A stretch of 64,000 nucleotides of DNA from an uncultured bacterium (GCA_964528395.1 CAZGTC010000005.1:80840-144839); one strand, 5' to 3'. Shown: positions 6,103 to 52,917, numbered from the stretch's first letter. Made by a program: numbers and translations. The notes: a model not told the origin generated them from the letters alone.

Positions 6103-7071
6103 TTATATTATTCTCCATAGTTCTTCTTTTGTGGTTAATCCGAGCTTGATTTTTTCTTTTCCATCTTCAGCAAGAGTTTTAAAATTTTGGCTGATGGCTT
6201 CTTGAAGATTATTTTCAACCATGAACATTTCAAATATTCCGATCCGGCCTCCCTGCGGTTTTCTGGCCAAGCGCTGGGCAACCACGCCGATTAAAGTGGC
6301 ATTGATCAAAAAATTTGGGATCCCGATATCTTTTAAGCGCGTAATCGCAGAAACTGCGTCATTGGTATGCAGGGTTGAAAGCACCAGATGCCCGGTGAGT
6401 GCGGATTGGATGGCAATTTTTGCAGTTTCTTCGTCCCGGATTTCTCCAATCATAATAATATCTGGATCCTGCCGCAAAATAGAGCGCAGCCCGCGGCTAA
6501 AAGTTAAACCAGTTTTATAATTGACCTGGATTTGATTGATTCCTGGCAGTTTATATTCAATCGGGTCTTCGATGGTTGAAATATTTACCTCGCTGGAGTT
6601 CAAAATATTGAGCGAAGCATAAAGCGTGGTAGTTTTTCCAGACCCAGTTGGACCAGTAACCAGCAAGATTCCGGTTTTTCTCTGCAGCATTTTATGGTAA
6701 AGCGTTAAGTGTTCTTTTTGCATGCCGAGATTTTCCAGCGATAAGAGCGAGTGTTCTCGATTGAGAATCCTGATGACGCATTTTTCGCCATGGCATGTCG
6801 GAATTATCGATATCCTAAGGTCCATTTTTTGGTATTGGATTCTCCCGTCTTGCGGCAATCTTTTTTCCGCAATATCCAGATGGGAGATGACTTTAATCCT
6901 GGAAACAATTTGCAAATGGGCGTCTTTTGAGAGGGAATTTATCTCATTTAAAATCCCATCGGTGCGAAAACGGACCCGGCTATTTTCTTCTTGCGGCTCA
7001 ATATGGATATCTGAAGATTTGCATTTTATAGCTTGATCTAATAGTTCGTTTAAAGTATTAATTGTGTTCAT
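6103..7071 (-). CDS. pilT: Type IV pilus retraction/twitching ATPase PilT
   Basis: GPTGSGKTTTLYASL Walker A and PilT/GspE-family sequence throughout. I moved the start to the internal Met (MNTINTLNELL) because the upstream extension lacks PilT similarity and overlaps the next gene. Confidence 0.8.
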   Translation of the reverse strand: MNTINTLNELLDQAIKCKSSDIHIEPQEENSRVRFRTDGILNEINSLSKDAHLQIVSRIKVISHLDIAEKRLPQDGRIQYQKMDLRISIIPTCHGEKCVIRILNREHSLLSLENLGMQKEHLTLYHKMLQRKTGILLVTGPTGSGKTTTLYASLNILNSSEVNISTIEDPIEYKLPGINQIQVNYKTGLTFSRGLRSILRQDPDIIMIGEIRDEETAKIAIQSALTGHLVLSTLHTNDAVSAITRLKDIGIPNFLINATLIGVVAQRLARKPQGGRIGIFEMFMVENNLQEAISQNFKTLAEDGKEKIKLGLTTKEELWRII

Positions 7072-7225
7072 ACAGGGGTAATATGCAATTTTCAGGCCAG
7101 CAATAAATAATGGAACCCACCAGCCGCCTAAAAAAAATATTTTACCAGGTGAAATTTTTTTAAGGATTGTTAGAAGGTACCTTAAGGTTTGTAAGCGTTT
7201 TATAATAAAAGACAGTTTAGTTTTT

Positions 7226-10200
7226 ATGTATATAAATTTTTTACTTGATTGTTTTCCTTTGTTAAGTTCCCCGGTTCTTATCCGCACGGAAATTTCTGAA
7301 GAGAAAAAACAATTGTTATGGAAATTGAAGTGGGAAGCTTCTCCCGAAGAAAGAGTTCGCATTGCTGAAACTTTGGGAGAATTAAAGGATGATAATGCCG
7401 CTATTATTCAAGGCCTTGCAAATGCTTCTTTGGGAGTTAGCTGGAGAGTTAATTATAAAGCCCTGGAAGCTTTGGCGACGATTAATACTTCCAAATCAAT
7501 TTCAAAACTCCTGCAGAGAATTGGCAGCTATGTTGTTTCCGCTAATTTTGCTTCTTTGGTAGAAGTTCTAAATAATCCCAAGTCAACCCTTCCGCAAAGA
7601 TTGTCAGCGCTCATAAATTTGGGGAGAATAAGAGATCGCCGGGCGGTCAAAATTTTGTGTGATATTTTATTGAACCGTAAGGAATGCTGGCAGATGCAAG
7701 CCGTGGCAGCAGAGGCCCTGGCAGAGTTTGGTTTTGAAGCGGTTGAAGCTTTGAAAAAAGCCTTAGAAAATTGCTGCTGGCGGGCAAAACCTTATATTGT
7801 CCAGTCTTTGGGAAGAATTTTTCTGCTGCATACGCTTGCATTAAAAATTACAAAAAATCCAATTTATAAAGATGCGTTGCAAGTTAAGCAAATATGCCAA
7901 AACCACAAGGCTTTGGCCGAGGGTGTTGTAAATGTCCTTATAAAAGCGATTAGGGAAAATAACTGCGTGGTTGGAAAATATGCGGCGGGTGCGCTGGCAA
8001 TGATAAAGGATGAGCAGGGGCTGCCGATTTTATTAAAGGTTTTTAGGAGTGCAGATCTGAATTTTCGCAAGCATATAGCTATGCTGGTGCTGGATAACCT
8101 AAAACAGCATTCTTTTGTTACTGGGTTCGCTTTGTTTTCCAAGCAAATATTTGAAAATATGGAGCTGGAAGAAAAAGGTTTTTTAATTTCTATAGCCAGG
8201 GAGATCTACGGTTCTGAAAAAGGCCATTTAGCGGGTTTCTACCAAATTTATCAAGTATCTCCCCCGCCGCCACAGCCTCAAGTTTATCCTGCCAGTGCCC
8301 CCAAAAAAGCAGTTATCGTAAAAAAACAAACAAAAGAAAAATCGCCGTTGGAAATAAAAAAAGGACAGTTATTAAGATCTTTACAAGAGGGTTTAACTAA
8401 ATTAAATTTTCAGGTGGCAGCGTATGAGAAAAATCGTTCTATTCCAGTACAATTGTTCCATTCATTCAAGGCTGCAATTGCCCAATTTAAGCTGCGCTGG
8501 CTGAATAAAATTAATGCTGAAATAAATAGCGGCTTAAATTTTGCTTCTTTAACAAAAGAAATTCGCCAAAATGTTGAAGGTTTATCAAATTTATTAAAGC
8601 AACAGTACGTTAATGTTTATCAAAAAACCAAGATGTATAGTATTGAAGATAAAGAAAGCGTATGTATGCGAGTGGCCGGGTGCTATGGGCTAAAAAAAAT
8701 AAAATTCCCAACTCCAGGGCTGGAAGCAAGGTGGCAGAAGTGGTGGAAGTTATATAGAAATAGCATGTATAGGGAGATCAATAAAACTATCGCCCGATAT
8801 GATATAGATAAAAAAATCTGGTTGAATAAGGCCAAGCCCGAAGAAAAACTGGCGTTGTATTATAGTTTTCAAAAGTACCGCACTTTTCTGGAAAGAGCAA
8901 AAAAAGATCTGCCCGCAATTGTAAAAACTTTGTTTTTAGCCCTGAAATTCGATGGAAACTACGAAGTCCTAAAAGATTTACTCTTCGAAAGGATTTTTCC
9001 CAGATTAGAAATTCATCAAAAGTTATCTTATAAAAACGCAGCAGGACTATATTATATAGGTAGCAAAAAATATTTGGGTAGAAATGTGCGGCAAGGAACG
9101 ATTAAGTTAAAGCAAAAAAGTACGTGTGAAAGTTATAATTTGTTTTCAGATGTTAATGTCCATGAAATCATGCATTCTTTGCCAGATAGAGGAGTAAATT
9201 ATAAAAAGGAAGCTTACAATTTGTTTTTTGAAGGCGTGACAGAATTTTTGCATCAAGTGTTAAATCAATATTTTTATCTTCCAAAATATGTTGCTTATGC
9301 GAGTGAGGTTGTATTAGTTTACGCTGCTTCGCTTTTTGATTTTAAAGCAGTGGTTGATTATTATCGCGGGGCTAATGCCATAAAATGGATGCATTTAGCT
9401 AATAAACTGTTTTTAAATTATCCAGTTTTAAAAACCGTTTTCCTTTCTTTAGAACCCAAAATCAAATCAGAGGATTCGGCTAAAAGAAAAAAGGCAGCTA
9501 TAGCTATTATCAAGGAGCGCTTTCAAGAATTAAAACCAGAAAAGATTGTGAGCTTGATCTCGCGCCCTTATCTGCCATATGATTTGCCTTTTTGGATGGG
9601 GAATTTTTATAAGTTTCTTATTAGTGAAAAAACAATTCCGGATATAAATAAGAGAAGAAACGTAGCTTATCTTCTCTTGAAAGCGTTTGTTAGGCTGGAA
9701 AAATATTATGTTATTTCTGAAAAGTCAATTATATATTTGACGGGGTTGCTTTCTTTAAAACAAAAACAACAATTGTTTGGAGATTTTTCTAGGCAGTTGC
9801 TGTTCGATTCCGCAAATCATGATATTCGCTATTTTTATCCTATTTATGCTTTAGCTTATGATATGAAAGATCTTCGATATTATATCCGAGGATTTAATCT
9901 ATTAATAAAAGCACTTGATAAGCTCAATTTTTGCACCTCGGTTAATTTGAACATAAATCCATTTAGCGTGGTTGCCCAATTAGCGCAAAGGATATTTGAA
10001 AAAAATTCGGATTTTTCATTTTTTAGGGTTGCTTGGGAGAAAATATCCCATAAATTAGAAGAAACTCCCGGCGAATATTTAAAGGGAGGAGATTATCAAG
10101 TGCTGAAAGATTTATTAAATAATTTTAAGGATGAAGAAAAAGAGGAAAAGGCAAAAAAATTCCGTTTGTTAGTAGAAAAAAAGATTAGGGAATATTTGGA

Positions 10201-10399
10201 TTATTATGTAAAAAAAGATGGTTGCTTGAATATAGTTGCAATCGGCAATTTGGAAGAACTATTTGTTGCTGATGATGAAATAAAGGCCTGGATTATTAAT
10301 CTTTTGAAAGCAAAAGAGCTGAAAGTTACAGAATTGGCAGCGCTTAAATTAAAATCATGGGGAATAAATAATCTTAAGCAAATGGTGAAAGAATGGTGA
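7226..10399 (+). CDS. Large protein (1057 aa) with N-terminal PBS-lyase-type HEAT repeats, a PPPPQPQ linker and a ~700-aa unknown domain containing an HEIMH (HExxH) motif
   Basis: HEAT-like repeats at the N-terminus (LGELKDDNAAIIQGLANA..., LGRIRDRRAVKILCDIL...AVAAEALAEFG). It is the first gene of the same-strand cluster. Confidence 0.6.
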   Translation: MYINFLLDCFPLLSSPVLIRTEISEEKKQLLWKLKWEASPEERVRIAETLGELKDDNAAIIQGLANASLGVSWRVNYKALEALATINTSKSISKLLQRIGSYVVSANFASLVEVLNNPKSTLPQRLSALINLGRIRDRRAVKILCDILLNRKECWQMQAVAAEALAEFGFEAVEALKKALENCCWRAKPYIVQSLGRIFLLHTLALKITKNPIYKDALQVKQICQNHKALAEGVVNVLIKAIRENNCVVGKYAAGALAMIKDEQGLPILLKVFRSADLNFRKHIAMLVLDNLKQHSFVTGFALFSKQIFENMELEEKGFLISIAREIYGSEKGHLAGFYQIYQVSPPPPQPQVYPASAPKKAVIVKKQTKEKSPLEIKKGQLLRSLQEGLTKLNFQVAAYEKNRSIPVQLFHSFKAAIAQFKLRWLNKINAEINSGLNFASLTKEIRQNVEGLSNLLKQQYVNVYQKTKMYSIEDKESVCMRVAGCYGLKKIKFPTPGLEARWQKWWKLYRNSMYREINKTIARYDIDKKIWLNKAKPEEKLALYYSFQKYRTFLERAKKDLPAIVKTLFLALKFDGNYEVLKDLLFERIFPRLEIHQKLSYKNAAGLYYIGSKKYLGRNVRQGTIKLKQKSTCESYNLFSDVNVHEIMHSLPDRGVNYKKEAYNLFFEGVTEFLHQVLNQYFYLPKYVAYASEVVLVYAASLFDFKAVVDYYRGANAIKWMHLANKLFLNYPVLKTVFLSLEPKIKSEDSAKRKKAAIAIIKERFQELKPEKIVSLISRPYLPYDLPFWMGNFYKFLISEKTIPDINKRRNVAYLLLKAFVRLEKYYVISEKSIIYLTGLLSLKQKQQLFGDFSRQLLFDSANHDIRYFYPIYALAYDMKDLRYYIRGFNLLIKALDKLNFCTSVNLNINPFSVVAQLAQRIFEKNSDFSFFRVAWEKISHKLEETPGEYLKGGDYQVLKDLLNNFKDEEKEEKAKKFRLLVEKKIREYLDYYVKKDGCLNIVAIGNLEELFVADDEIKAWIINLLKAKELKVTELAALKLKSWGINNLKQMVKEW

Positions 10400-10408
10400 G
10401 GTAATTTT

Positions 10409-11722
10409 ATGAGTAGTTATATACCAGGAATATCTTCTAAACCAATAAAAGTTGCCCGGGCAGATATTGATCCCCGCTGGCAGCAGGCTAAAGAATTGCT
10501 GAATAAACTCTTTAGGGAAGGCGCTATAAACAAAACTATATATAATTTGTTGTTGAATAAAATTGAAAAAAGAGAGTGGGGCCTTGAGCAGATTCAAAAT
10601 CTGGAAAAACTTTATCGGTTATATGTTCTGGTAAAAGCCTGGTTCCAAAACAATGGGCAAGCATTAATTAATTATTATGAAAGCAATTTTTCTTCCCCAA
10701 CGGCTAAAAGTATAAAATTGCCAGTAGTTTTTATGCGAGAAGCTAGAAGATACCTAATGCCAAGCGAGGTTGGGCTTAGCCGATTAAAAACTAAAATTGG
10801 CGCATTGACGCAGGCATTAAATTCTGTTGGGTTTAAAAATGCCAACGAAAACTATTTGAAATTCGGCAAATATCTTTTGGATAAGTCGGGCATTGATTGG
10901 CTGCAATACTCAATGGAAAAAATCCTGGGTATTCTAAGGCAAAATTGCCAAATAATTTTTCCCAAGTACCAAAGCCTAAAGCATCGTTACCCGATAACCT
11001 TTGCCTGTAATTTCCAAAAACCCGGCCAATTCAGGACCGACCGGATTTTGTGGAAGCCGTGGGCAGGCTACGACCTTTCCACCGGGGCAAAGAGAAGAGA
11101 GTTTTTGAAAAATAATCTTTGGGGCGAATTATTATTTATGCATATTATAACAACCCCGGAGAAATTCGGCATTACAAAAGATGATCCAGCGTATGCGGAT
11201 GTTGCCATGCTGATGCGGCACCGTTTTAGCCGTCTTTTGCAGGATTTAGCAAAGAGAAAAAAAGCAATTTTATATAGGGATGTTTGGCATATTACAAGCT
11301 ATTATCAAACAACCCCTTGGCCGCAGTGGTTTAAGGATATCTGGGAAGTCTTTTTAAGAAATCATCCTTTTATTAATCTTGGGCATAAGGTAATGGCGAT
11401 CTTGAAAGAAAAAGGATTGCCTTTGGAACTCTACGACTTTGACAGCCTTTTCAAGGTCAACCAAGCCTTGCGGCGTTTTGGGGCAGATTATTCTGCTCGG
11501 CCAGAAAAAAGGGGGACAATCGTTTTTTCAATTGCCCGACTGATACATTATCGCTCCCATTTGAGAATAAAACTTTTGCTTCCAAAGGCATTGCAAAAAG
11601 AATTCCTTTTTCTCTTGGGCCAGAAACTGCGCGAGTTGGGAATAAACGATATAAACATTTTAACTATTTTTAGTAAAATGACTAGAAGTAAAAATCAGGC
11701 AATTGTTTTTGAGGTATTCTAG
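10409..11722 (+). CDS. Hypothetical protein (437 aa)
   Basis: ORF track. Begins 10 bp after the previous gene, so it is probably co-transcribed. Confidence 0.5.
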   Translation: MSSYIPGISSKPIKVARADIDPRWQQAKELLNKLFREGAINKTIYNLLLNKIEKREWGLEQIQNLEKLYRLYVLVKAWFQNNGQALINYYESNFSSPTAKSIKLPVVFMREARRYLMPSEVGLSRLKTKIGALTQALNSVGFKNANENYLKFGKYLLDKSGIDWLQYSMEKILGILRQNCQIIFPKYQSLKHRYPITFACNFQKPGQFRTDRILWKPWAGYDLSTGAKRREFLKNNLWGELLFMHIITTPEKFGITKDDPAYADVAMLMRHRFSRLLQDLAKRKKAILYRDVWHITSYYQTTPWPQWFKDIWEVFLRNHPFINLGHKVMAILKEKGLPLELYDFDSLFKVNQALRRFGADYSARPEKRGTIVFSIARLIHYRSHLRIKLLLPKALQKEFLFLLGQKLRELGINDINILTIFSKMTRSKNQAIVFEVF

Positions 11723-11774
11723 GTTTTTAGCAGTATAATTTCATTAATGTATTATTTTTGAAAAGGAGAAAAAA

Positions 11775-12314
11775 GTGGGAATAATATCTACATCAAACTA
11801 TCATTGTTTTCTCGAAGGGCCAAGGCATCGGATCGCGATTCCGTGGACGGCAAACCTTGAACAGAGATTAAAACCAATTTATTCAGGGCATCCCCAAGAG
11901 AAACTATGCAAAGATTTGTTGATGATAAGTGAAAATATTAAAGAATTAAAAAAAGAACGGGAAGCAACGGATATCTGGTCCTGGTTAGTGCGTTGGTTTA
12001 CTAGAGGAAAATATGTTTATATTCCCGAAAAATGCCAATGCAAGCCCCGGCCTATTTATCGCCATTCTTTGCCGCCAGAAAAACAACCGTCTCGAAAAAG
12101 ACAAGCCCCACAAGTAAAGATAGAACAAACCCCTGCGGTTGTTGTTCCTCCTACTCCTAAAAAAAAGATAGATCCCAAAGTTATTCGTCAATGTACGCAG
12201 GATGAATTTCTAAGGAAAAGAAGTGCGGATAACGCCCAGGCAAAGCAATGTATAAAGGAATGTAATGGAAAGTCCGGTGCAAAGCTAGGGAATTGTACTG
12301 CTAGATTTTGGTGA
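11775..12314 (+). CDS. Small Cys-motif protein (179 aa) with a P-rich linker, paralogous to the 20159..20815 product
   Basis: Shares the YSGHPQ...C...W..W..RG....PEKCQC block with the 20159 ORF. Confidence 0.5.
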   Translation: MGIISTSNYHCFLEGPRHRIAIPWTANLEQRLKPIYSGHPQEKLCKDLLMISENIKELKKEREATDIWSWLVRWFTRGKYVYIPEKCQCKPRPIYRHSLPPEKQPSRKRQAPQVKIEQTPAVVVPPTPKKKIDPKVIRQCTQDEFLRKRSADNAQAKQCIKECNGKSGAKLGNCTARFW

Positions 12315-12339
12315 TTATTACTATAGAGGAGTTAAAAAA

Positions 12340-15300
12340 ATGGGAATGAAAGTAGAAAGAAATAATGTTCAGCATCCGCGAGGGGCTCCAAATGGAGTAG
12401 GGAGAGCAGGACAACCTTTTAACCTTCAAAAAGGTTCTTCTGCCGGAGGAATTCAAGCTTTTAGGCCGATGGTTGAAGAGAGATTAAATAAACACCCCCA
12501 TTTACAATCTTTTGATATTCTGGGAAAAATCGAAAGAATTGAAGCAGTCTTAAAAGAAGACGGCTTAAAAATAGATGTATTCGGAATTTTTGAAAAAATC
12601 CTTACTTTTTATAATCCAAATTTAGAAGGTATTGAATTAGAAGGAAAAATTGTTGCAATTGTTGATGAGGCATTATCTAATTTAAGCAATAAGGAAGATA
12701 TTTGGAAAAAATTATTGGTTTTTGATGTTCCGGGAGAGGAAACGTTTTTCCCCTTAGCAACAATGGTTCAAGTAGCGCATTTGATTTTTTTGCATAAAGA
12801 AAGCAAAGCTGGCAATCTTCCTATAACTTCTCCTTTGCAGAGCGGCCAAAATATAAAGATACTATTAGAAACATTGAGCCCTAAATCGGAAATCTATAAT
12901 TTTTATCGAATAGCAAAAGAAAAAAAATTGATTGGAACGAATCAAGCTGAAATAGAACAATTTGTAGGTAAAAATTTTGTAATCGCGGGAGAAAAAATAA
13001 AAGGGCAATGGGAAGCTCTTTATGCCACTAATCGAGAAAATGAAATTAATGACCCATTAGGGCACTTGGGTTATTTAAGTGAATTGTGGCAAAGAAGAAT
13101 TGGAACAGAAGAAGAATTAAAACTTATTGTTAAGGCTTTATGCCAGTCTGTTGGGGTTCCGTTTAGTGATGCAGCTAGTAAAAACTTTAACCCTACAGTA
13201 ATTAATTCTTCGGAGGAATTAGAAACGTTTAGGAAAAAAGAGAGAGAGATTCCTCTTTTGTCTAATGTTTTATCTGTTTGGAATTTTTCAAAAGATTCAA
13301 GAAATACATTAGTTTGTAATGATCGTAGTTTGTTTCGAAATAATTTATCTGCCCCAAAGGGTATGTGGAGAGAAAGCGATGAGGGGGTATCTTTAGAAGG
13401 AGACGCTTATTTGGAAGCTCCAATGACCGCTTCCTTGAAGAGCTTAGGCGGTCAATTTTCTTTTTCTGCCAGGATAAAGCCAGCAAATTCAGATAAATGG
13501 CGTGATTTATTGGTTACTTGTCAAAATGGAAAAACAGTGATTCTGCTGGATGGTAAAGAAACAGGCACAACTGATGTGTCTTATGTACAACTTGGAGAAG
13601 AAAAATTACAGCTTTTTAAGGGGTTTAAAGGGGTCATTGAAAACGGGTTCTCTCTCTGGTATACGGTCATGTCCCCAGAAAAAATAAAGGAAGAACAAGA
13701 GAAACAAAAAAAGGAATCATTGCAAGCAAGCTCACCGATAGTTTTCCCTCCAGTACAGAATATGAATATTTCAAGAGTTGTAGATCCAGCTCCTAAAGTT
13801 TCTGCGATGCGAGAAATTAAAGAAACTGATAAAAACCATAATGCGGGTTTAGAGCTATGGAATAAATATCTTAAATATCAAGAATATGCTGCAAAGTTAG
13901 AACGAAATCAATTGAAAAGAGCAGCAAAAATTGGTCTTTGGTTTGGAGTCCCAACTCCGCTGGTTGTTCAAACTGCAATTAAAACATGGCTAATGCTAAA
14001 TTCTGTCGAATATTTTGGAAGCTTGGGTTTTCCTATTTTTGAACTAGGGGCTGGAGTGGTAATTTTTTCCTTAGCATTTAGCATATCTTATTTTGTGAAT
14101 AAATTAATCATGAGATCAACAGAAAAGGGGTTGGGTCTTCTTGGGAAAAAAGCCGAAGATGAAAAGATGGAAAAGTTTTTGGGAATTATAAAGGGATGGT
14201 CTCAAACTGATCCGGAAAGATTTAAGGTAGCGCAAGCATTCATTACAAAGGCTGAAACTTCAGCACAAGTAGATTGGGTAATAAATTGTGTTCTTAGTGC
14301 TAAAGAAGATGAACCCCTGATGCGCTTATCTCAAGCTAGTAATGACTTAATGCAAGGTTATGCTGTTCGTGATGGGGTTTTAAGAAGAGAGGCTCCTGCT
14401 GAACTTAAAGAAAAATTGAGCAATATTCAGAAAGAGATAAAACTATTGCCATCATCAATGAGAGATTTATCTTGTGCAGAAGAAGTAAAATATGCAAAAC
14501 AAATAGCCGACTTGCAAAATAGGCTGAATAAATTATCAGAAGAGCGCGACAACAATTTTAAAAAAGATCGAGAAGATTTGCCAGTCTTGCTTGGAGAAAT
14601 AAAAATATTTTGGCAGGTTATAAAAAAGATTTCAACAGAGGGAAAAAATGAAACAGAAAAATTGGGAGATTGTTTTGGCCACCTGTGGAAGCAAATAAAT
14701 GATATTTTATGTGAACAAAATATAAGCAAAACAGGGACGATTATTTGGGAGGAATCACCGTCAATCCCAAGAGAAGATAAGCCCTTAACAGAAGAATCTT
14801 TGGAAAAGAGATTTTTTGATGCTATCAATAGAGTACAGCAGAAAACGGATTTTTTTAGGGCGAGCATTAATTTGTCAAAGAAGGAGTTAGAAGAAAAGCA
14901 GGGGTCAATTTTAGAGAGTGCTCTTACTGAAGCAGATTTTGTTGCTCTTCCCATAAAACTTCAAGGGTTTGCTCGTAACTTGATAAGCGACATATTGGCA
15001 AGCAATTTAATTTTTACCCCTCCTTCAACAGACTCTGAAGAATGGGAGGACGTTGGAGGATATAAGGTTTGTAAATTAGGGGCAGGGGGATTTGCAGATA
15101 TATATCTTACGCAAGACCAAAAAAAGATTCTAAAAATCTTAAAGCTTCAATATTTATATAGTGAAGAATCGCGCCGTTTAGTGAGAGAAGCACTAGCACA
15201 ACAACTCGTTGTACATCCTAATATTGCGAAAGTTTATGGGAGGGATGAAAAAAATGGTTGGCTAATAACAGAATATGTTAAAGGGATTACTCTTGAGGAA

Positions 15301-15915
15301 TGGATGCAGACAAACGAAAAAGGATTAACAATTATACGAGCTTTGGCTATTTTATTCCAGATTGCCGATGGATTGGAAGCAGCTTTAGTAGAAGGAGTTT
15401 TTCATCGGGATATTTCTTCTCGTAATATTATGTTAAGCGTGGAAAACCCAGCGGAACTTGTAAAAATACTTGATTTTGGAATGTGTAAATTTTTTGAAGG
15501 AGGACCGGCTTATGAAGAAGCTGCGTCAAACCCCAGGCTAAATACAGCATCAGCTCAATTTTCTAAAATGTCAGGAGGAACCCTTGATTATATTGCGCCA
15601 GAACAAGCTATAACATCTTTACAAGAGAAAGGGAAACTTAACTTTAAAGTTGATCTGTTTGCTTTGGGAGTATTATTATATCGAATGTTAACTGGTAATT
15701 TGCCTTTTAATTATGAAAATAAAGGGGTTGAACCACGTGTCCAACATGGAATAGCTTGGTTAGACGAGCAGGTAAATCCAGACTTAACAAATATTCCAGA
15801 AAAAATTCATTCCTTATTGGAGAGATTATTAAAACGAAATCCTCTAGACCGTTATGATGATTACCAAGAATTAAAAGAAGATATACTTAAAATTGCACGG
15901 TTCTATGTAATTTAG
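12340..15915 (+). CDS. Giant membrane protein (1191 aa) with a LamG/ConA-like domain, transmembrane helices, a coiled-coil region and a C-terminal Hanks-type Ser/Thr kinase-like domain with a variant catalytic loop
   Basis: Hanks subdomains are visible: LGAGGFADIY (G-loop), ILKILK, HRDISSRN, DFG, YIAPE and DLFALGVLLYRMLTG. The LamG-like stretch reads FSFSARIKP...LVTCQNGKTVILLDGKETG. Hydrophobic segments are at about residues 530-590. Confidence 0.7.
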   Translation: MGMKVERNNVQHPRGAPNGVGRAGQPFNLQKGSSAGGIQAFRPMVEERLNKHPHLQSFDILGKIERIEAVLKEDGLKIDVFGIFEKILTFYNPNLEGIELEGKIVAIVDEALSNLSNKEDIWKKLLVFDVPGEETFFPLATMVQVAHLIFLHKESKAGNLPITSPLQSGQNIKILLETLSPKSEIYNFYRIAKEKKLIGTNQAEIEQFVGKNFVIAGEKIKGQWEALYATNRENEINDPLGHLGYLSELWQRRIGTEEELKLIVKALCQSVGVPFSDAASKNFNPTVINSSEELETFRKKEREIPLLSNVLSVWNFSKDSRNTLVCNDRSLFRNNLSAPKGMWRESDEGVSLEGDAYLEAPMTASLKSLGGQFSFSARIKPANSDKWRDLLVTCQNGKTVILLDGKETGTTDVSYVQLGEEKLQLFKGFKGVIENGFSLWYTVMSPEKIKEEQEKQKKESLQASSPIVFPPVQNMNISRVVDPAPKVSAMREIKETDKNHNAGLELWNKYLKYQEYAAKLERNQLKRAAKIGLWFGVPTPLVVQTAIKTWLMLNSVEYFGSLGFPIFELGAGVVIFSLAFSISYFVNKLIMRSTEKGLGLLGKKAEDEKMEKFLGIIKGWSQTDPERFKVAQAFITKAETSAQVDWVINCVLSAKEDEPLMRLSQASNDLMQGYAVRDGVLRREAPAELKEKLSNIQKEIKLLPSSMRDLSCAEEVKYAKQIADLQNRLNKLSEERDNNFKKDREDLPVLLGEIKIFWQVIKKISTEGKNETEKLGDCFGHLWKQINDILCEQNISKTGTIIWEESPSIPREDKPLTEESLEKRFFDAINRVQQKTDFFRASINLSKKELEEKQGSILESALTEADFVALPIKLQGFARNLISDILASNLIFTPPSTDSEEWEDVGGYKVCKLGAGGFADIYLTQDQKKILKILKLQYLYSEESRRLVREALAQQLVVHPNIAKVYGRDEKNGWLITEYVKGITLEEWMQTNEKGLTIIRALAILFQIADGLEAALVEGVFHRDISSRNIMLSVENPAELVKILDFGMCKFFEGGPAYEEAASNPRLNTASAQFSKMSGGTLDYIAPEQAITSLQEKGKLNFKVDLFALGVLLYRMLTGNLPFNYENKGVEPRVQHGIAWLDEQVNPDLTNIPEKIHSLLERLLKRNPLDRYDDYQELKEDILKIARFYVI

Positions 15916-15928
15916 GAGGTAAAAAAAT

Positions 15929-17275
15929 ATGTTTATTGCTCCGCTTTCTTTTGTCCACGGGTTATTCGAATCTAATTTATTGGTTAATGCGGGGAACCCT
16001 AGAAAACCGCGGGTTTCCAAGCGCTTATTGGATTTGTTAAAAAAAATGGAAAAAGAAAAGGATCCTGCAAAAAGAGAGTTTGCTTATCTGACCTTAAAGT
16101 CATTGCTAAAGCATTCTAGGGAAAAAAATAATATGGTGCTGGTTTTAATTAATAAATTAAATTCAAAGAAATCATTGATAGATGATAAAGACGACCATAG
16201 CTTTTGTGTTAGAGTCATTGATATATTAGGAGAAACAAGAGATAAAAGAGCAACCCCGATTTTATTAAGATGGTTTAAAAATTGTCCACAAATTGCTGAG
16301 TCTCCATATGGTTTTGAAAATTGTATTACAATTAAGAAGAATATTGCAAAAGTTTTGGGAAAAATAAAGGATCATCGAGCTGTGCCGGATTTGATAGCTA
16401 TTGGGCTAGGGCATCAAGATGGAGAAGTGAGAGAAGCTTCGGCTTGGGCTTTGGGAGAAATTAGGGATCCACGAGCAATAATATCTTTGGTTAAAATGCT
16501 TGAGAGAAGGGATTATTTGTGTAATCTTTATTTTTTTGACCTTGTTATCCGAGCTTTGGCGAAGATTAAAACGAGAGATACTATTCTTGCATTAATAGGT
16601 TGTTTTAAAAAGATAGAAAAGTGTCGCATTATTACTGTCACCATAAGAATAAAAATGATTGGCAGGCGGATCTACAAATCTCATCAAAATTCTTTAGAAA
16701 AAATTTTTTTAGAAATCGCGGATGAAAAAGTGGTGAAAATGTTGAAAAATGCGGCTAAGGATACTCTTCGCAGATCTGGGAATTGGGGAACAATTGCTAG
16801 AATTATCGAAGTTTTTAAGAAAGCGGTTAAGAAAATAATTGATATAAAATATAATCAATATAGGTCAATCATTGAGGCGGCTATAATCATCAATTCACGA
16901 TATTTAACCGCATCTCGCTATCAAAAACAACAAATAATTTCGCAGTTGAGAAGAAAAGTACCGCCAAGACTAATTTCTGTGCTCTTAAGACAGGGAGCCA
17001 GGGGCTTTAATATGCAAATGTTATTAATGCTTCCCCTGGATCTTCGCCAGAGCCTTATTGCTAAAAAGCAACGAGGCGGGCAAACGGTCAAAGTATTGAG
17101 AGCGGTTTTGGGCGAAATCGAAGCCAGCAAGAACAAAGAATATTCACGGCGCATCTGTGAATTACCCTCTAAGGATAAGGCTTTTTGCAATATTATAAAA
17201 GAACTTAAGCGGAGAAAAGCGGAAGGCTCTCCTGTTTATATAGGACAACCTTCTTCTCCATGGGATGTCAAATGA
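15929..17275 (+). CDS. HEAT-repeat (PBS lyase-like) protein, 448 aa
   Basis: Repeats such as DKRATPILLRWF, DHRAVPDLIAIGLGHQDGEVREASAWALGEIRDPRAIISLVKML. Confidence 0.65.
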   Translation: MFIAPLSFVHGLFESNLLVNAGNPRKPRVSKRLLDLLKKMEKEKDPAKREFAYLTLKSLLKHSREKNNMVLVLINKLNSKKSLIDDKDDHSFCVRVIDILGETRDKRATPILLRWFKNCPQIAESPYGFENCITIKKNIAKVLGKIKDHRAVPDLIAIGLGHQDGEVREASAWALGEIRDPRAIISLVKMLERRDYLCNLYFFDLVIRALAKIKTRDTILALIGCFKKIEKCRIITVTIRIKMIGRRIYKSHQNSLEKIFLEIADEKVVKMLKNAAKDTLRRSGNWGTIARIIEVFKKAVKKIIDIKYNQYRSIIEAAIIINSRYLTASRYQKQQIISQLRRKVPPRLISVLLRQGARGFNMQMLLMLPLDLRQSLIAKKQRGGQTVKVLRAVLGEIEASKNKEYSRRICELPSKDKAFCNIIKELKRRKAEGSPVYIGQPSSPWDVK

Positions 17276-17324
17276 TCTGGAGCGTCTAGATAGTATTATG
17301 CATCTAGTTTTTAGAAGGTAAAGT

Positions 17325-18947
17325 ATGGGAAGTTTTTTGATTAATTTGTATCCGAGATTGTCTGGCTATTTGTTGGCAAGCGGGATAGATTTTGCTCGAT
17401 TGAACTCTAAAGAATTAATTGAGAAATTAAATAATAGTTTGGATTGTCGCGAGCGGGCCAAAGCTGCAGAAGAATTAGGACGAAGAAATGAAACATCAGC
17501 TATCCTGCATTTAAGAAAGACAGCAGAAAATGATCCTAGTTTTGTAGTTCGATACCAAGCAAAAAGAGCATTAGCTGAATTAGCTAAAAGAGGCTCAAGC
17601 GAAGCAGCGGAAGCAATAGTTGGCGACGCACCGCTTGAAGTTTATGTAGGATCGCTTAGAGAAGGGAAAGTTACATATTCTATTCCTAACGTTTATTCAA
17701 AAATCAAATATTCAGAACTAATTGAATATTTAGGAAAACCCTTGAGCAATACTCCTTTTTCTGATTGGAGAAATCCCAATGATACAGGACTTGTTTCTAG
17801 CAAAGCAGCCCTTAAAATATTTGGAAACAAGGATAATTTTTGGAAGAAATTTTTTAGAGATACTAGCGCGGACGAGCTAGTTTTTAAGCCAGATACAACG
17901 GAAAAGACCTTTACGGGTTTTTATAATAAAGAGCAACGGAATAAATTTTATGTGCTCTGGCGCCGAATCCAGGAAGAAAGTAAATGGACAAATCGATTTT
18001 TAAGCCAACCCTATTTTGGCGGAAGTTTTTTCTATCGGGGTTTGGCGCGTTTCTTGCTTAATGGTGAGGAAGGAAGCATGCTTGATCCAGAAAAGGAATA
18101 TCAAGCTTTGGACTTACGGGGAAGCATGGAGAGAATTGGGCTTAATTTAGCAATAGATATGCGCGATTTTTATTTTCCTTTTATTGCTGGTTTTGGGGGA
18201 GCCTTTGATTTTCGTTTCAATTTTTTTACTGGTGATGTAAATGGTAGGGCAAAGGGAAAGGCGGATCTCGATGCTTATCCTCGATTATATCTAAGAAATA
18301 GAAATTGGTTGGCAGAAATAGGATTTTATACCAAATCTTGGGGCGAACAAGCATTTGGAGGAAAGGCCGCGATTTCTTTTTCGCTAGAGAATTTTTTTTC
18401 AAAGCTTTCAGTCGCATATTATAAAAAAAGGACTAACTCGGATTCTGGCTTCTTTGATATTCGATTAGACGGGGGATTAAAATTTGGAAAAAAACATGAT
18501 TTTTTCTTTTTATTTAATGGGATAATTTTTCATACTGCTTCAATTAGTGCTACCCTCTTTTTTCAAACTGGAATTGGATACCGTTACTTAGACTTTTTTT
18601 ACTCGTCTTTATATTTAGATTTTTCCGAATCTTATTTTTCTTACAAAATTCTTATGGGGAGCAGGCCGTTAAAATACTTTAGCGTGGAATTATTTCACCA
18701 GAATTTTCCTTATATTAAGCAGAATCTTTTTATTAGTAACGTTGTTTCTTTTGGTGCTTTGGTGTCCGCAGGTCTGGGAAAAGAATTTGAAGTATTTTTT
18801 GAATATAGATTTTGTAAAGCTGAAAAAGGAATGTTTGGAGATATTAATACCAGCGAACATTGGCTGGCGGCTGGGATCCGATGGGTGATTGCTGGAAAAA
18901 ATAATCCGCGCAATCCGATTTCAAGGTTAGAATATGTTAGTTATTAG
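17325..18947 (+). CDS. Protein (540 aa) with an N-terminal HEAT repeat and an aromatic/Gly-rich C-terminal region resembling beta-barrel amphipathic strands
   Basis: N-terminus reads RERAKAAEELGRRNETSAILHLRKTAENDPSFVVRYQAKRALAEL. The C-terminal region has alternating aromatic residues (FDFRFNFF, FFFLFNGIIFHTASISATLFFQTGIGYRYLDFFY). Confidence 0.55.
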   Translation: MGSFLINLYPRLSGYLLASGIDFARLNSKELIEKLNNSLDCRERAKAAEELGRRNETSAILHLRKTAENDPSFVVRYQAKRALAELAKRGSSEAAEAIVGDAPLEVYVGSLREGKVTYSIPNVYSKIKYSELIEYLGKPLSNTPFSDWRNPNDTGLVSSKAALKIFGNKDNFWKKFFRDTSADELVFKPDTTEKTFTGFYNKEQRNKFYVLWRRIQEESKWTNRFLSQPYFGGSFFYRGLARFLLNGEEGSMLDPEKEYQALDLRGSMERIGLNLAIDMRDFYFPFIAGFGGAFDFRFNFFTGDVNGRAKGKADLDAYPRLYLRNRNWLAEIGFYTKSWGEQAFGGKAAISFSLENFFSKLSVAYYKKRTNSDSGFFDIRLDGGLKFGKKHDFFFLFNGIIFHTASISATLFFQTGIGYRYLDFFYSSLYLDFSESYFSYKILMGSRPLKYFSVELFHQNFPYIKQNLFISNVVSFGALVSAGLGKEFEVFFEYRFCKAEKGMFGDINTSEHWLAAGIRWVIAGKNNPRNPISRLEYVSY

Positions 18948-18960
18948 GAGCTAAATTATT

Positions 18961-38474: not shown

Positions 38475-38655
38475 ATCAAGCTGTATTTCCTTTGAGGGGA
38501 TTCTAAGAGCGCAAGAATATTTAAAAAGCTTAGAACAAGTGCCAAGGGCGTAAAAAAATAAACCTTTTTTGAGCATTTTGTGAAAGCCTCTTATAATACT
38601 GACAAATATCACATATTGGCGTAAAATTTGAACTACGCAACATAAAAACACGAAC

Positions 38656-38912: not shown

Positions 38913-38974
38913 CAAGAAAACTAATATGGTATATTATTTCCGCAGATACTCAAAAATGAGTATTTGGAGAAATA

Positions 38975-42730: not shown

Positions 42731-42885
42731 TGCTCTTTTTGTCCTTTAGATTAAAGCAAAAATGGGCCTAGCCATCTTGCTAAAGCCCATTCTCACTTTA
42801 AACTATTTATTTAATTTTTGCAGATGGCTTGTCCGCCTGCGGCGGGCTTGGCGACCTCTAAGGGGCGCTCTGTACCTATATTATC

Positions 42886-42900
42886 GGGGGAGGGGGGGGG
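42886..42900. repeat. Homopolymer tract G5-A-G9
   Basis: Read directly. Lies between the giant surface protein gene and the outer-membrane protein gene. Confidence 0.8.
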
Positions 42901-42920
42901 TAACTTGCATGCTTTTTTGA

Positions 42921-49377: not shown

Positions 49378-49383
49378 ATTAGG

Positions 49384-51642: not shown

Positions 51643-52917
51643 ATGGCTATAAATGGAAACGGCAAGACCCCGCCTTTAGGTTCTCGTGCTGTAAGATTAC
51701 GTATTCCTACAGGAGAATTTGCTTCTTCTTTACAATCCACACGATTACATATTCCAGAGCCTGTTAAATTAACGCCAGAAGCTAAATTAGTTTTCGATAG
51801 AATGAAACAAGCAGCTCAACCGGATTTAACTCCAAGACCAATAGATCCTTTGGAACTCACGCGATATATTAATGTTGAGCCGGTTCAAAAAAAGCTTGAA
51901 CAAATGAACGAGCAGCATCAAGAAAGGCTTTTAGGAGAAAAAGCAGGAAGCACCAATTTGCTTAAATGGCAGGTTGATACGGCGATAGGCAGCTTGCATG
52001 AAAAAAATGAAGATGCTGCAGCCGTGAGTCGGATTAAAATTTTCTTGAAGGATAAGAACGGTAGAGCAATTCAAAAAGAAGCCCTATTGGCAGTTGTTTG
52101 TGATGGAGTTTCGCGTTCTCACAGAGGTGGAAGCGGGGCTTTGGCTAGTATAAAAGCAGTGGAAGATTTTATGTTCTCTATTTTGGCGAAATTTTCATAT
52201 CAAGATTTGAGTAATTGGTCGCCAGAATCCATATTGGATGAGATAAAAAAATCTGTAGAAAGTACAAATGAGCAAATAAAAAATATTGAAGGCGCTGGCA
52301 ATACTACTATAGCTGCAAGCTTGATCATAGAAAATAAGTTGTATGTAGTTTATGCGGGAGATTCCAGATTATATGTTCTAAGGGGAGAGCAAATAGCGGC
52401 CATGACGCTTGATCATTCTCTTAAGCAACAACTGGCTCAATTTGGCATAACGGGTACGGTGCTTCACGGATTAAGTGCTATGCTTGGGCGGATACCAGAA
52501 GAAAACCATTTTGTTGGTTCTTCTGTAGCAAAAGGAGTAATAGAAATTAACCTACCATTTAGTTTATTTGAGCAAACTCCAATAGAAGAAGTTTCTCCAA
52601 ATAATCCAATTTATCGGGACGCCCAGAATGATTTTATTTTGTTGGGACAAAATATAGGGGGAGGGGATGCGCGTAAAAGTTCGCTGGAGGGTTTGAAAAC
52701 TGCTTGTTTTGAGCTCCAGCCAAACGATTTTATCTTTATAGTATCAGATGGGGTTCCATTTGGAGATCTTTTGCCAGCAGCTAGAATGGTTGCTTCAGGG
52801 ACACTTCAGGCCGCGGCAGCTGAAGCAATTAAAAAAGCAAGAGAAAACGCAGCTAATACAGATAATGCTACTGTGATTGCGATTTCTTTTGATTATGGAA
52901 ACAGGAAAAAAAGTTAA
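51643..52917 (+). CDS. PP2C-family Ser/Thr phosphatase with a ~130-aa N-terminal extension
   Basis: NEDAAAV, VCDGVSRSHRGGSGA, AGDSRLYVL...TLDHS, IVSDGV and DNATVIAI motifs. Confidence 0.75.
   Translation: MAINGNGKTPPLGSRAVRLRIPTGEFASSLQSTRLHIPEPVKLTPEAKLVFDRMKQAAQPDLTPRPIDPLELTRYINVEPVQKKLEQMNEQHQERLLGEKAGSTNLLKWQVDTAIGSLHEKNEDAAAVSRIKIFLKDKNGRAIQKEALLAVVCDGVSRSHRGGSGALASIKAVEDFMFSILAKFSYQDLSNWSPESILDEIKKSVESTNEQIKNIEGAGNTTIAASLIIENKLYVVYAGDSRLYVLRGEQIAAMTLDHSLKQQLAQFGITGTVLHGLSAMLGRIPEENHFVGSSVAKGVIEINLPFSLFEQTPIEEVSPNNPIYRDAQNDFILLGQNIGGGDARKSSLEGLKTACFELQPNDFIFIVSDGVPFGDLLPAARMVASGTLQAAAAEAIKKARENAANTDNATVIAISFDYGNRKKS

Follow-up and report, generated by a model that had tools for sequence, protein, structure and literature searches.

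A membrane-anchored bacterial Hanks-type kinase with Ser in place of the catalytic-loop Lys and Arg at the D+4 position

According to the kinase atlas, the hallmarks of the bacterial Ser/Thr kinases (STKs) are a Met in the Gly-rich loop, a Met gatekeeper and the alphaC RF motif (bioRxiv 10.1101/2025.01.12.632604), and among its 42 bSTK families only CCM1 has the order N-terminal region, transmembrane (TM) helix and kinase (bioRxiv 10.1101/2025.01.12.632604). A domain that lacks any one of three residues, namely the Lys of beta3 and the Asp of HRD and of DFG, is defined as a pseudokinase (PMC12599244, bioRxiv 10.1101/2025.01.12.632604). In the tyrosine kinases and in JAK2 JH2, the base that replaces Lys168 of PKA is supplied from the D+4 position of the catalytic loop (PMC4718504, PMC4771162), and the HRDLAARN loop of the tyrosine kinases has been set against HRDLKPEN (PMC4771162). 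The Arg at D+4 is a hallmark of tyrosine kinases, in which it hydrogen-bonds the hydroxyl of the substrate Tyr (PMC4771162). In this study, we analysed a kinase gene in a window of 64,000 nucleotides of DNA from an uncultured bacterium. On balance, we lean towards an explanation of the whole in which the gene product is a membrane-anchored bacterial Hanks-type kinase, probably active, with R1028 replacing the missing Lys.

Kinase fold and catalytic loop

The gene and the signature residues of its kinase domain are located as follows.

12340..15915, + strand: kinase protein gene, complete including the stop codon (ORF list; 1191 aa)
12326..12331, + strand: Shine-Dalgarno GAGGAG, read off the sequence, with the ATG 8 nt downstream
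15073..15858, + strand: Hanks-type protein kinase domain, aa 912-1173 (Pfam Pkinase, PDB phmmer, AF2, Foldseek)
15076..15105, + strand: Gly-rich loop LGAGGFADIY, aa 913-922, with Phe at the usual bacterial Met (sequence)
15133..15135, + strand: beta3 Lys K932 (invariant column in the 21-sequence MAFFT alignment)
15187..15189, + strand: alphaC Glu E950, after R946-L947 at the bacterial 'RF' position (invariant column)
15403..15426, + strand: catalytic loop H1022 R1023 D1024 I S1026 S1027 R1028 N1029 (alignments, codons)
15472..15480, + strand: DFG motif D1045 F1046 G1047 (D and G columns invariant)
15481..15576, + strand: long activation loop, aa 1048-1079 (sequence; low pLDDT here)
15577..15603, + strand: P+1 loop and APE, G1080 T1081 LDYI A1086 P E1088, of the Ser/Thr-kinase type
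15652..15654, + strand: alphaF Asp D1105, in DLFALG, aa 1105-1110 (invariant column)
15850..15852, + strand: conserved Arg R1171, which pairs with the APE Glu (invariant column)

Every one of the Hanks subdomain motifs that a sequence-only reading of this DNA had quoted was found in the ORF at 12340..15915, and the kinase fold was confirmed by both profile and predicted structure. Pfam Pkinase (PF00069) matched aa 912-1173 (E=3.9e-34). The match scored 118.7 bits, where the cut-off is 31.7, and it covered positions 6-253 of the 263 in the profile, while the score for PK_Tyr_Ser-Thr was 78.5 bits. A PDB phmmer search retrieved Stk1 (6e-24). The AF2 model of the domain (pLDDT 84.7, pTM 0.87) had Stk1 and PknB as its top Foldseek matches, with a probability of 1.00 to Stk1, PknB, Aurora A and ULK1 and target-normalised TM-scores of 0.77-0.82. 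The domain is a member of PF00069 that passes the profile threshold, has the bilobal kinase fold and carries the signature residues of the family. The last 280 aa make up an entire kinase fold, in which the catalytic and structural signature residues are all kept except for the D+2 Lys.

The HRDISSRN loop pairs without gaps with HRDIKPQN of S. aureus Stk1 and HRDLKPQN of StkP. In a MAFFT alignment of 21 sequences, which comprised the query and 20 bacterial kinases, the H, R, D and N of the catalytic loop were invariant, and the query differed only at the Lys (present in 20/20 of the others) and the Pro (19/20). Because the loop is free of gaps and its H, R, D and N are invariant, the Lys-to-Ser replacement is not an alignment artefact. 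The loop is encoded by cat cgg gat att tct tct cgt aat, and since going from a Lys codon (AAR) to TCT takes three base changes, a sequencing slip can be ruled out as well. The claim that the Lys of HRDLKxxN is a Ser here therefore stands on both the alignment and the codons. The query thus lacks the Lys of the canonical HRDxKxxN pattern at Ser1026, a D+2 Lys that was present in 327 of the 377 nearest kinase domains. Arg1028 lies at D+4, the same position as the Arg of HRDLAARN; this Arg of HRDISSRN had been overlooked earlier.

The alignment also showed that the beta3 Lys K932, the alphaC Glu E950, the HRD Asp D1024 and the DFG Asp D1045 are present, which settles the status of the catalytic residues. 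The invariant columns that include the query are K932, E950, H1022, R1023, D1024, N1029, D1045, G1047, G1080, P1087, D1105 and R1171. Within ILKILK (aa 930-935), pairwise alignments placed either K932 or, in an alternative register, K935 on the VAIK Lys. The query was altered at 16 of the 42 columns that are >=90% conserved in the 21 sequences, yet the invariant set was kept, so the losses spare the catalytic core apart from position 1026. The departures include Phe for the Gly-loop Met, Thr (T977) for the Met of the gatekeeper and Leu for the alphaE His, and they extend to other conserved positions. Among 317 related domains, the Gly-loop residue was M in 234 and F, as in F918 of the query, in 27, and RL was found at the bacterial 'RF' position in 24. 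With F918, T977 and R946-L947, only the Arg of the bacterial STK hallmarks is retained. The P+1 region GGTLDYIAPE, including T1081, follows the Ser/Thr-type pattern G-T/S-x-x-Y/F-x-x-P-E; the role of the P+1 Thr has been described previously (PMC6213207). The column of the usual activation-loop Thr is occupied by Gln1073, and the candidate phospho-acceptors in this loop are Y1058, S1063, T1069, S1071, S1075 and S1078.

Catalytic activity and substrate specificity

Because K932, D1024 and D1045 are all present, the query is not a pseudokinase by the definition that is used in the field. The sequence-only reading had offered either a pseudokinase scaffold or an atypical mechanism; these three residues and the Arg at D+4 favour the latter and speak against the former. 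The domain is of the RD type. Most likely it is an active enzyme whose active-site layout is unusual but recurrent, rather than a dead pseudokinase. In the proposed mechanism, R1028 would reach the gamma-phosphate and the substrate hydroxyl and so substitute for the Lys, by analogy with the Arg of HRDLAARN and Lys677 of JAK2 JH2. Phosphotransfer by Asp1024 would proceed while K932-E950, N1029 and D1045 hold the Mg-ATP. A precedent for a loop without the D+2 Lys is the HRDLNSHN of LIMK1, whose sequence was checked in 3S95; LIMK1 is a well-studied active kinase.

A pseudokinase or a scaffold of very low activity, which would bind nucleotide or partners such as the neighbouring HEAT-repeat proteins and signal by conformation instead of phosphotransfer, is in our opinion unlikely. 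In its favour, the lost Lys, which contacts the gamma-phosphate, is found in 20/20 of the aligned bacterial kinases and in 327/377 of the nearest domains, and mutation of the Lys with the equal role in POMK (HsPOMK K210A) strongly impaired catalysis (PMC5142810). The 16 of 42 highly conserved columns that are lost in the query, with the usual activation-loop Thr among them, and the orphan status of the protein within a low-GC cluster point in the same direction. However, this reading has to contend with the presence not only of the three defining residues but also of N1029, E950 and the full APE/alphaF/Arg network, with the compensating Arg at D+4 and with the existence of active kinases that lack the D+2 Lys (the tyrosine kinases and LIMK1). 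The selective retention of the core within a much-altered domain also argues for catalysis.

The active-kinase reading aligns well with what was found in environmental kinases. A metagenome scan for the pattern H-R-D-h-S-[SPTA]-[RS]-N was restricted by codon choice, and among the matches listed 97 of 121 were kinase domains. The other catalytic residues were all kept in 50 of the 60 listed kinase matches that had the N-lobe on the contig. Where D+4 was Arg, the P+1 residue in the matches listed was T/S in 28 and K/R in seven, and where it was Ser, the P+1 residue was K/R in 23 and T/S in four; this association among the matches listed (OR 23, Fisher p=4e-7) is uncorrected for phylogeny. Among the closest relatives, 6/44 of the Lys-less loops had a base at D+4, compared with 7/327 of the Lys loops (p=0.002, likewise without correction for phylogeny). 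Judged from these sequences, Lys-to-Ser is a recurrent rather than a rare variant of otherwise intact bacterial kinases, and the Lys-to-Ser domains carry a putatively compensating base, an Arg at D+4 or else GK for GT in the P+1 loop. In the related proteins P0168, P0134, P0086, P0148 and P0052, the Lys-to-Ser domain lies in tandem beside a canonical kinase domain, an arrangement that is frequent enough to count in favour of a pseudokinase; such pairs recall regulatory pseudokinase-kinase pairs, and the Ser-type loops could have low activity.

The loop also raises the question of specificity. Its GT P+1 loop and its likeness to Stk1 and PknB suggest that an active kinase would have Ser/Thr substrates, possibly with some Tyr. 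A tyrosine-specific or dual-specificity enzyme, i.e., a bacterial Hanks-type tyrosine kinase whose specificity was shifted to Tyr by the HRDxxxRN loop, seems improbable. It draws on the tyrosine-kinase hallmark Arg at D+4, and when a 55-aa query centred on the loop was used, receptor tyrosine kinases led, with VEGFR2 (5e-5) first, followed by PknE (3e-4) and PknB (1e-3). Moreover, the gatekeeper Thr and the Gly-loop Phe replace the Met that most bacterial relatives have in both places, and HRDLS[ST]RN occurs with a P+1 loop of the tyrosine-kinase type (PIPWRWTAPE) in the eukaryote-like metagenome kinases L031, L097 and L111. In comparison with HRDLAARN and HRDLRAAN, the query has the Arg at D+4 as in AAR and Ser-Ser for both Ala. 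On the other hand, a search of the query for the tyrosine-kinase P+1 loop (P-I/V-K/R-W-x-A-P-E) returned GTLDYIAPE, which has neither the Pro nor the Trp and is of the Ser/Thr type, without P-x-x-W. The Pkinase score exceeds that of PK_Tyr_Ser-Thr, bacterial Ser/Thr kinases match the query best over the whole domain and in fold, and Tyr phosphorylation in bacteria is mostly not performed by Hanks kinases.

Membrane topology and gene neighbourhood

Upstream of the kinase domain, the protein comprises the following segments.

12340..13344, + strand: N-terminal region, aa 1-335, with no recognised family and no signal peptide (Pfam, PDB, hydropathy)
13357..13674, + strand: sub-threshold LamG / concanavalin-A-like beta segment, aa ~340-445 (Pfam Laminin_G_3)
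13924..13995, + strand: helix of weak hydrophobicity, aa 529-552, which may form the first arm of a membrane hairpin (Kyte-Doolittle)
14023..14109, + strand: strong TM helix, aa 562-590 (Kyte-Doolittle)
14137..15039, + strand: juxtamembrane linker, aa 600-900, rich in E/K/Q/L/R and probably partly coiled coil (composition, Pfam)

Searches of Pfam, the PDB and homologues with aa 1-335 gave no match, and the single-sequence AF2 model of the N-terminal region was unusable (pLDDT 36). The Laminin_G_3 match (E=1.4e-4) reached 22.5 bits, under the cut-off of 27.6, and aa 343-442 were modelled, with low AF2 confidence, as beta-strands only. The helix at aa 562-590 has the highest 19-residue Kyte-Doolittle maximum of the protein (1.94), with five K/R in the 21 aa after it; that at aa 529-552 reaches 1.15, with six K/R in the 21 aa before it. 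In the linker, E, K, Q, L and R account for 42% of the residues, and aa 684-745 gave weak Pfam matches to coiled-coil families only.

The description of the protein as membrane receptor-like held in part: the TM helix at aa 562-590 supports the membrane, and the missing signal peptide and the basic flanks speak against a receptor. A true receptor kinase, single-pass and N-out, with a LamG-like region that would bind a ligand outside the cell, such as a glycan, and signal across the membrane to the kinase, is possible, if rather unlikely. Only one segment (aa 562-590) passes the usual TM threshold, and it separates the N-terminal region from the kinase, an order that eukaryotic receptor kinases share but that is seldom seen in bacteria. 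The LamG-like match lies in the N-terminal region, and LamG-like domains are commonly extracellular. However, this match is under the Pfam cut-off, and a Kyte-Doolittle scan for an export signal found no hydrophobic N-terminus (15-residue maximum of 0.65 in the first 75 aa). A 560-aa N-terminal domain would have to be exported without a signal peptide, which is very unusual in bacteria, and the second, weaker helix with the K/R-rich flanks fits an in-in hairpin. The absence of a signal peptide and the basic flanks on both sides of the hydrophobic region agree better with an N-terminus in the cytoplasm than with a sensor outside it. In the favoured membrane-anchored arrangement, the N-terminal 530 aa (a helical region and the LamG-like beta segment) and the kinase would both be cytoplasmic, joined by a hairpin of the weak (529-552) and the strong (562-590) helix, and the charged linker of 300 aa would promote both the formation of dimers and the autophosphorylation of the long activation loop in trans.

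The kinase gene lies in a cluster, and a phosphatase gene is found further downstream.

7226..22857, + strand: nine-gene co-directional low-GC cluster that includes the kinase gene (spacing, GC, Pfam)
51643..52917, + strand: PP2C-like phosphatase, candidate antagonist, unlinked (NCBIfam, Pfam, PDB)

Five genes of the cluster (at 7226, 15929, 17325, 18961 and 21016) encode HEAT-repeat proteins (Pfam HEAT_2 / HEAT_PBS), and those at 10409, 11775 and 20159 had no family match. The gaps are 9-52 bp, with 200 bp ahead of the last gene, most genes have an AGGAG-like Shine-Dalgarno sequence, and the GC content is 0.35-0.37 compared with about 0.40-0.43 in the flanks. The cluster is a fast-evolving orphan of low GC. 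The host genome is Margulisiibacteriota-like. The kinase probably has the co-transcribed HEAT-repeat proteins as its partners or substrates. It is very improbable that a tyrosine-kinase-style loop was acquired convergently together with a eukaryote-like receptor layout (LamG-like ectodomain, one TM helix and C-terminal kinase) that signals to the HEAT-repeat proteins; if it were true, the protein would be the bacterial counterpart to receptor tyrosine or dual-specificity kinases, with dedicated HEAT-repeat targets.

The PP2C reported at 51643-52917 proved to be real but a weak or partial match: NCBIfam Stp1_PP2C (7e-21) covers the N-terminal half, Pfam PP2C scored 21.1 bits against a cut-off of 20.3 and the PDB match was 5f1m (1e-7). 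It may antagonise the kinase. A cognate STK/PP2C pair by adjacency was rejected, as the gene is 36 kb downstream of the kinase with about 25 genes between them, many of which are unrelated.

The exact 1191-aa protein is a singleton (P0001, on an NCBI contig of 247 kb) in the public collection, and homologue searches found no homologue of the N-terminal 880 aa or of the full architecture, making the protein an orphan. This, together with the low GC and the many altered conserved positions, would suit a decaying or non-functional lineage-specific gene in which the kinase domain is drifting and the loss of the Lys is one step of degradation. We give that reading hardly any credence, as the ORF is unbroken over 3.6 kb in AT-rich DNA and has a strong Shine-Dalgarno sequence, the gene is tightly packed into an operon-like cluster, the remaining catalytic residues are all kept and the AF2 kinase model is confident.

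Comparison with known systems

The best sequence and fold matches are kinases of the PknB / Stk1 / PrkC type (PF00069), with which the query shares the kinase fold and all of the subdomain motifs as well as the alphaC Arg of the 'RF' motif, the RD arrangement and the GT P+1 loop. Unlike them, it has HRDISSRN instead of HRDxKPxN, Phe and Thr instead of Met at the Gly loop and the gatekeeper, no PASTA domains, and a C-terminal kinase after the TM helix, whereas their order is usually kinase-TM-sensor. Assignment as a PASTA kinase was rejected because NCBIfam PknB_PASTA_kin (NF033483) scored 133 bits against a cut-off of 450, with the kinase part alone matching. In bSTK family CCM1, the TM helix is N-terminal to the kinase as in the query, a likeness by architecture and description only; the description of CCM1 refers to Chloroflexota and Cyanobacteria and mentions FHA or PQQ-DH domains, neither of which was seen in the query.

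As in the tyrosine kinases (HRDLAARN) and JAK2 JH2 (Lys677), the base is at D+4 and not at D+2, the residues at D+2/D+3 are small, and VEGFR2, EGFR and PDGFR come closest to the loop segment. Membership in the tyrosine-kinase group was rejected in view of the P+1 loop without PxxW, the overall likeness to bacterial Ser/Thr kinases and a Pfam tyrosine-kinase score that was 40 bits lower. LIM kinase 1 (TKL group, HRDLNSHN) resembles the query in the absence of the D+2 Lys, the Ser at D+3 and a basic/polar residue at D+4, but it is eukaryotic, has His at D+4 and a different architecture, and no specific relationship is indicated.

The replacement pattern itself is shared with the environmental kinases L019/L096 (HRDVSSRN), L015/L042 (HRDISARN) and P0168 (HRDVSPRN). 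These HRD-h-S-[PSA]-R-N kinases have Ser at D+2, Arg at D+4, a retained T/S at P+1 and an otherwise intact domain in common with the query. They score no more than 79 bits to it, whereas canonical Lys-type kinases reach 107 bits, and their kinase domain is N-terminal, with no similarity to the N-terminal part of the query. That they are no closer to the query and differ from it in architecture points to independent origins of the loop.

The kinase domain and its catalytic residues

The kinase region forms the C-terminal part of a long protein, whose gene and hydrophobic segments are as follows:

12340..15915, + strand: open reading frame of 3576 nt encoding the 1191-aa kinase protein, with the kinase region at its 3' end
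8 nt before the ATG of this gene, + strand: Shine-Dalgarno sequence GAGGAG
aa 529-552 of the protein: weaker hydrophobic helix (hydropathy, KD 1.15)
aa 562-590 of the protein: strong transmembrane helix (hydropathy, KD 1.94)

Residues 912-1173 matched the Pfam family Pkinase with an E-value of 3.9e-34 (118.7 bits, cut-off 31.7) and scored 78.5 bits against the mixed Tyr/Ser-Thr Pfam model. The closest solved structures by sequence were Stk1/PknB of S. aureus (6e-24), StkP of S. pneumoniae and PknB of M. tuberculosis. An AlphaFold2 model that was built from an alignment of 21 sequences (the query and 20 others) was confident (pLDDT 84.7, pTM 0.87), and its nearest structural neighbours were Stk1, PknB, Aurora A, ULK1 and BRAF. 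The Pkinase match, the confident model and its proximity to Stk1/PknB confirm the kinase fold, and every Hanks motif that was quoted in the sequence-only reading was found in its place. A recent eukaryotic origin of the domain was rejected because canonical bacterial kinases were the top per-domain matches and the Arg of alphaC is retained. No second kinase and no paralogue of the N-terminal region of this protein were found elsewhere in the window.

The replacement of the catalytic-loop Lys by Ser is real. The loop HRDISSRN pairs residue by residue and without a gap with HRDIKPQN and HRDLKPQN of the solved kinases, and the absence of a gap between the invariant HRD and N rules out an alignment artefact. 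The loop is encoded by cat cgg gat att tct tct cgt aat; the Ser codon TCT differs from both Lys codons by three substitutions, which excludes a sequencing slip. In an alignment of the query with 20 bacterial kinases, the invariant columns that the query shares were K932 (beta3) and E950 (alphaC) in the N-lobe, H1022, R1023, D1024 and N1029 in the catalytic loop, D1045 and G1047 of DFG, G1080 and P1087 in the P+1 loop (the substrate loop before APE) and APE, as well as D1105 (alphaF) and R1171. Thus, the beta3 Lys, the alphaC Glu and the Asp residues of HRD and DFG are all present, and the catalytic core is retained save for the Lys at D+2, i.e., two residues after D1024. The domain is nevertheless much diverged, since the query has changed in 16 of the 42 columns with a conservation of at least 90% among the other aligned sequences; among these changes are K1026S, P1027S, F918 for the Gly-loop Met, T977 for the gatekeeper Met, RF to RL in alphaC, one alphaE His and Q1073 for the usual activation-loop Thr. 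By the standard definition, in eukaryotes as well as in recent bacterial surveys, a pseudokinase has lost the Lys of beta3 or the Asp of either HRD or DFG (PMC12599244, bioRxiv 10.1101/2025.01.12.632604). Because K932, D1024 and D1045 are all present, the protein is no pseudokinase by this definition; of the two possibilities offered by the sequence-only reading, a pseudokinase or an atypical mechanism, the latter is favoured.

The N-terminal region, the gene cluster and the rest of the window

The strong helix at aa 562-590 bears out the membrane part of the proposed receptor-like fusion; the receptor part fared less well, as no N-terminal signal sequence was detected in the protein by hydropathy and K/R-rich stretches lie at either side of the hydrophobic region. 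Long N-terminal domains are very rarely exported by bacteria unless a signal peptide precedes them, and for this reason an in-in hairpin anchor that keeps both large regions in the cytoplasm seems a likelier arrangement than a single-pass receptor. The linker of 300 aa is rich in E, K, Q, L and R and has weak matches to coiled-coil families. A word-indexed search of 5.8 billion proteins with the N-terminal 880 aa revealed no homologue of this region, and with the full-length protein it returned only the protein itself or kinase-domain matches. Likewise, the best 150 proteins of an exhaustive phmmer search of 1.84 billion representatives matched via the kinase domain only, the search of genome contigs gave only two unrelated kinases and that of metagenome contigs gave no match. 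The N-terminal region had no match in the PDB even with E=10, and its sole family hint was Laminin_G_3 at aa ~354-405 (E=1.4e-4, 22.5 bits, below the cut-off of 27.6); an AlphaFold2 prediction from the single sequence was unusable (pLDDT 36). The TGT of the window shares ~60% identity with proteins labelled Candidatus Margulisbacteria, Margulisiibacteriota, WOR-1 and Saganbacteria, which places the organism in or near a sparsely sampled lineage and accounts in part for the orphan status of the protein.

The surroundings of the kinase gene include the following features:

3241-5241, + strand: 666-aa protein without a Pfam family, with a weak match to the NCBIfam TAL-effector AvrBs3 repeat
6103-7362, - strand: PilB/T2SSE-type ATPase gene adjoining the cluster
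7226-22857, + strand: nine co-directional, tightly spaced genes, with the kinase gene as the fourth
41612-47702, - strand: 1593-aa protein with fn3, bacterial Ig-like and C-terminal FlgD_ig-like domains, adjoining a PorP/SprF-like gene
51643-52917: genuine but divergent PP2C-like gene, 36 kb from the kinase gene
55013-58165, + strand: FtsH of 1050 aa (FtsH_ext, AAA, Peptidase_M41) with an intein-splicing-domain match at aa 256-685 within the AAA module

The cluster has a lower GC content than its flanks, and five of its nine genes encode HEAT/PBS-lyase-type repeat proteins while three others have no family match. The proteins starting at 7226, 15929, 17325, 18961, 20159 and 21016 (all + strand) share a similar short hydrophobic N-terminus that is followed by a K/R-rich stretch (MYGITLISALNVLS, MYGISLLAGYNFLLS, MSSISLLSWQGYVFG, MFIAPLSFVHGLFES, MGSFLINLYPRLSGYLL and MYINFLLDCFPLLSS, respectively). 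This motif, which is absent from the kinase, differs from a classical signal peptide and vaguely recalls the prepilin G|xTLI motif; a loose regular expression for it matched five of the 237 Met positions in the window, four of which are these gene starts. As listed, the first cluster gene (7226-10399, + strand) overlaps the opposite-strand T2SSE ATPase gene by 137 bp at its start, which lacks a Shine-Dalgarno sequence; the real start is probably a downstream ATG. The 540-aa product of 17325-18947 (+ strand) carries a HEAT repeat at its N-terminus and then ~400 very aromatic-rich residues with alternating patterns and the end ...RLEYVSY; this part looks like an outer-membrane beta-barrel and matched no Pfam family. 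A promoter and terminator scan was uninformative, with counts equal to the shuffled expectation.

The PP2C phosphatase that the sequence-only reading had noted was borne out, and its gene lies among housekeeping genes (TGT and the intein-containing FtsH); it is a candidate antagonist of the kinase solely as the only one visible. Elsewhere in the window, the organisation at 41612-47702 hints at a cargo protein of type IX secretion together with its partner, and the product of 3241-5241, which scored 2.2e-8 and 32 bits (cut-off 1000) against the AvrBs3 repeat model, may be a repeat protein of some kind. The GC content is 0.33-0.37 at 8000-22000, 36000-40000 and 44000-50000 compared to 0.40-0.43 elsewhere, and these three stretches correspond to large genes with few family matches or none.

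Lys-to-Ser replacement in other kinases and the position of the base

Among 377 kinase domains of the 190 nearest proteins, D+2 was occupied by Lys in 327, Ser in 16, Arg in seven and Asn in seven, and the Ser variants that look intact have the loops HRDISPDN, HRDLSPDN, HRDVSPRN and HRDVSPAN. Metagenome contigs were additionally scanned with a fixed DNA pattern for H-R-D-h-S-[SPTA]-[R/S]-N-[IV]-h that covered the TCN codons of Ser only. Among the 121 matches listed, 97 lay in kinase-like ORFs in which DFG and xPE follow the loop; the loops included HRDLSPRN (at least 26), HRDVSPSN (at least 19), HRDVSSRN (at least four), HRDLSSRN and HRDISARN (at least two each). The beta3 Lys, alphaC Glu, HRD Asp, Asn and DFG were retained in 50 of the 60 listed matches whose N-lobe was on the contig. 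Judged by these sequences, the Lys-to-Ser change alone is a recurrent natural variant, and the query kinase is nothing categorically new. Common descent of the query with the other Ser-type loops was rejected: against the query their best score is 79 bits, whereas canonical Lys-type kinases reach 107 bits, and these proteins have an N-terminal kinase domain and nothing in common with the N-terminal region of the query. Their lower scores and different architecture indicate that the change arose independently in the query. A literature search for loop variants such as HRDISS and HRDVSP found nothing relevant.

The residue at D+4, which is R1028 in the query, covaried with the P+1 loop. In the 71 unique loop/P+1 combinations among the matches listed, each counted as independent, D+4 Arg was accompanied by a P+1 Thr or Ser in 28 and by Lys or Arg in seven, while D+4 Ser was accompanied by Lys or Arg in 23 and by Thr or Ser in four (odds ratio 23, Fisher p=4e-7, kinship ignored). 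Similarly, a D+4 base was enriched in the Lys-less loops of the nearest relatives (six of 44, compared to seven of 327 Lys loops; p=0.002, kinship ignored). Such a pattern would be expected if the gamma-phosphate had to be contacted by one basic residue, whether from D+2, D+4 or the P+1 loop. The query falls in the class with D+4 Arg and a GT P+1 loop. Another bacterial class, with HRD-h-S-P-[SD]-N and GK instead of GT in the P+1 loop (e.g., KGKIPYMSPE), is widespread, as seen in the related proteins P0052, P0086, P0134 and P0148 and the metagenome loci L034, L037, L043, L055 and L062; here, the Lys appears to have shifted from the catalytic loop into the P+1 loop.

On balance, we lean towards an active Ser/Thr, possibly dual-specificity, kinase in which the base of the catalytic loop would be supplied from D+4. 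Its main rival, a low-activity or pseudokinase scaffold, is considerably less probable given the intact catalytic residues, but it gains from several relatives in which the Ser-type domain stands in tandem with a canonical kinase domain, as the GK-class domain does in P0052, P0086, P0134 and P0148; such an arrangement of the Ser-type domain could mean a regulatory role. By itself, the kinase protein is one additional divergent bacterial kinase, and the covariation of D+2, D+4 and P+1 is the most reusable result. The base that contacts the gamma-phosphate in Hanks kinases appears to be movable. Should this hold after phylogenetic correction and biochemistry, it would refine the sequence-based calling of kinases and pseudokinases, flag a set of kinase classes for testing and imply that the catalytic-loop solution of tyrosine kinases evolved repeatedly in bacteria.

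Comparison with tyrosine kinases, LIMK1 and the CCM1 family

LIMK1 is a catalytically active kinase. Its loop, HRDLNSHN (checked in PDB 3S95), lacks the D+2 Lys as does that of the query, and this Lys is therefore dispensable for a working kinase. With Arg at D+4, H-R-D-I-S-S-R-N of the query resembles HRDLAARN of tyrosine kinases, in which the AAR Arg forms a hydrogen bond to the hydroxyl of the substrate, as opposed to HRDLKPEN of Ser/Thr kinases (PMC4771162). When the 55 aa from alphaE to DFG were used as a query, the top matches were receptor tyrosine kinases, EGFR followed by VEGFR2 (5e-5; the alignment with the latter spans FQ[IV]A.G[LM]E...HRD[IL]..RNI[ML]LS), and PknE (3e-4) and PknB (1e-3) ranked below them; the margin is small and its direction as expected. 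However, the P+1 loop of the query, GGTLDYIAPE, is of the Ser/Thr type, unlike that of tyrosine kinases. The metagenome loci L031, L097 and L111 encode eukaryote-like TKL/TK-type kinases that combine HRDLS[ST]RN with the tyrosine-kinase P+1 loop PIPWRWTAPE, and thus the S-S/T-R loop is also found beside a true tyrosine-kinase-type substrate loop.

Of the 42 bacterial families in the kinase atlas, the Ser/Thr kinase family CCM1 alone has a transmembrane region N-terminal to the kinase (bioRxiv 10.1101/2025.01.12.632604). The query is like CCM1 in this order, architecture alone being compared, and the arrangement, which is rare in bacteria, is now seen in a poorly sampled, Margulisiibacteriota-like phylum.
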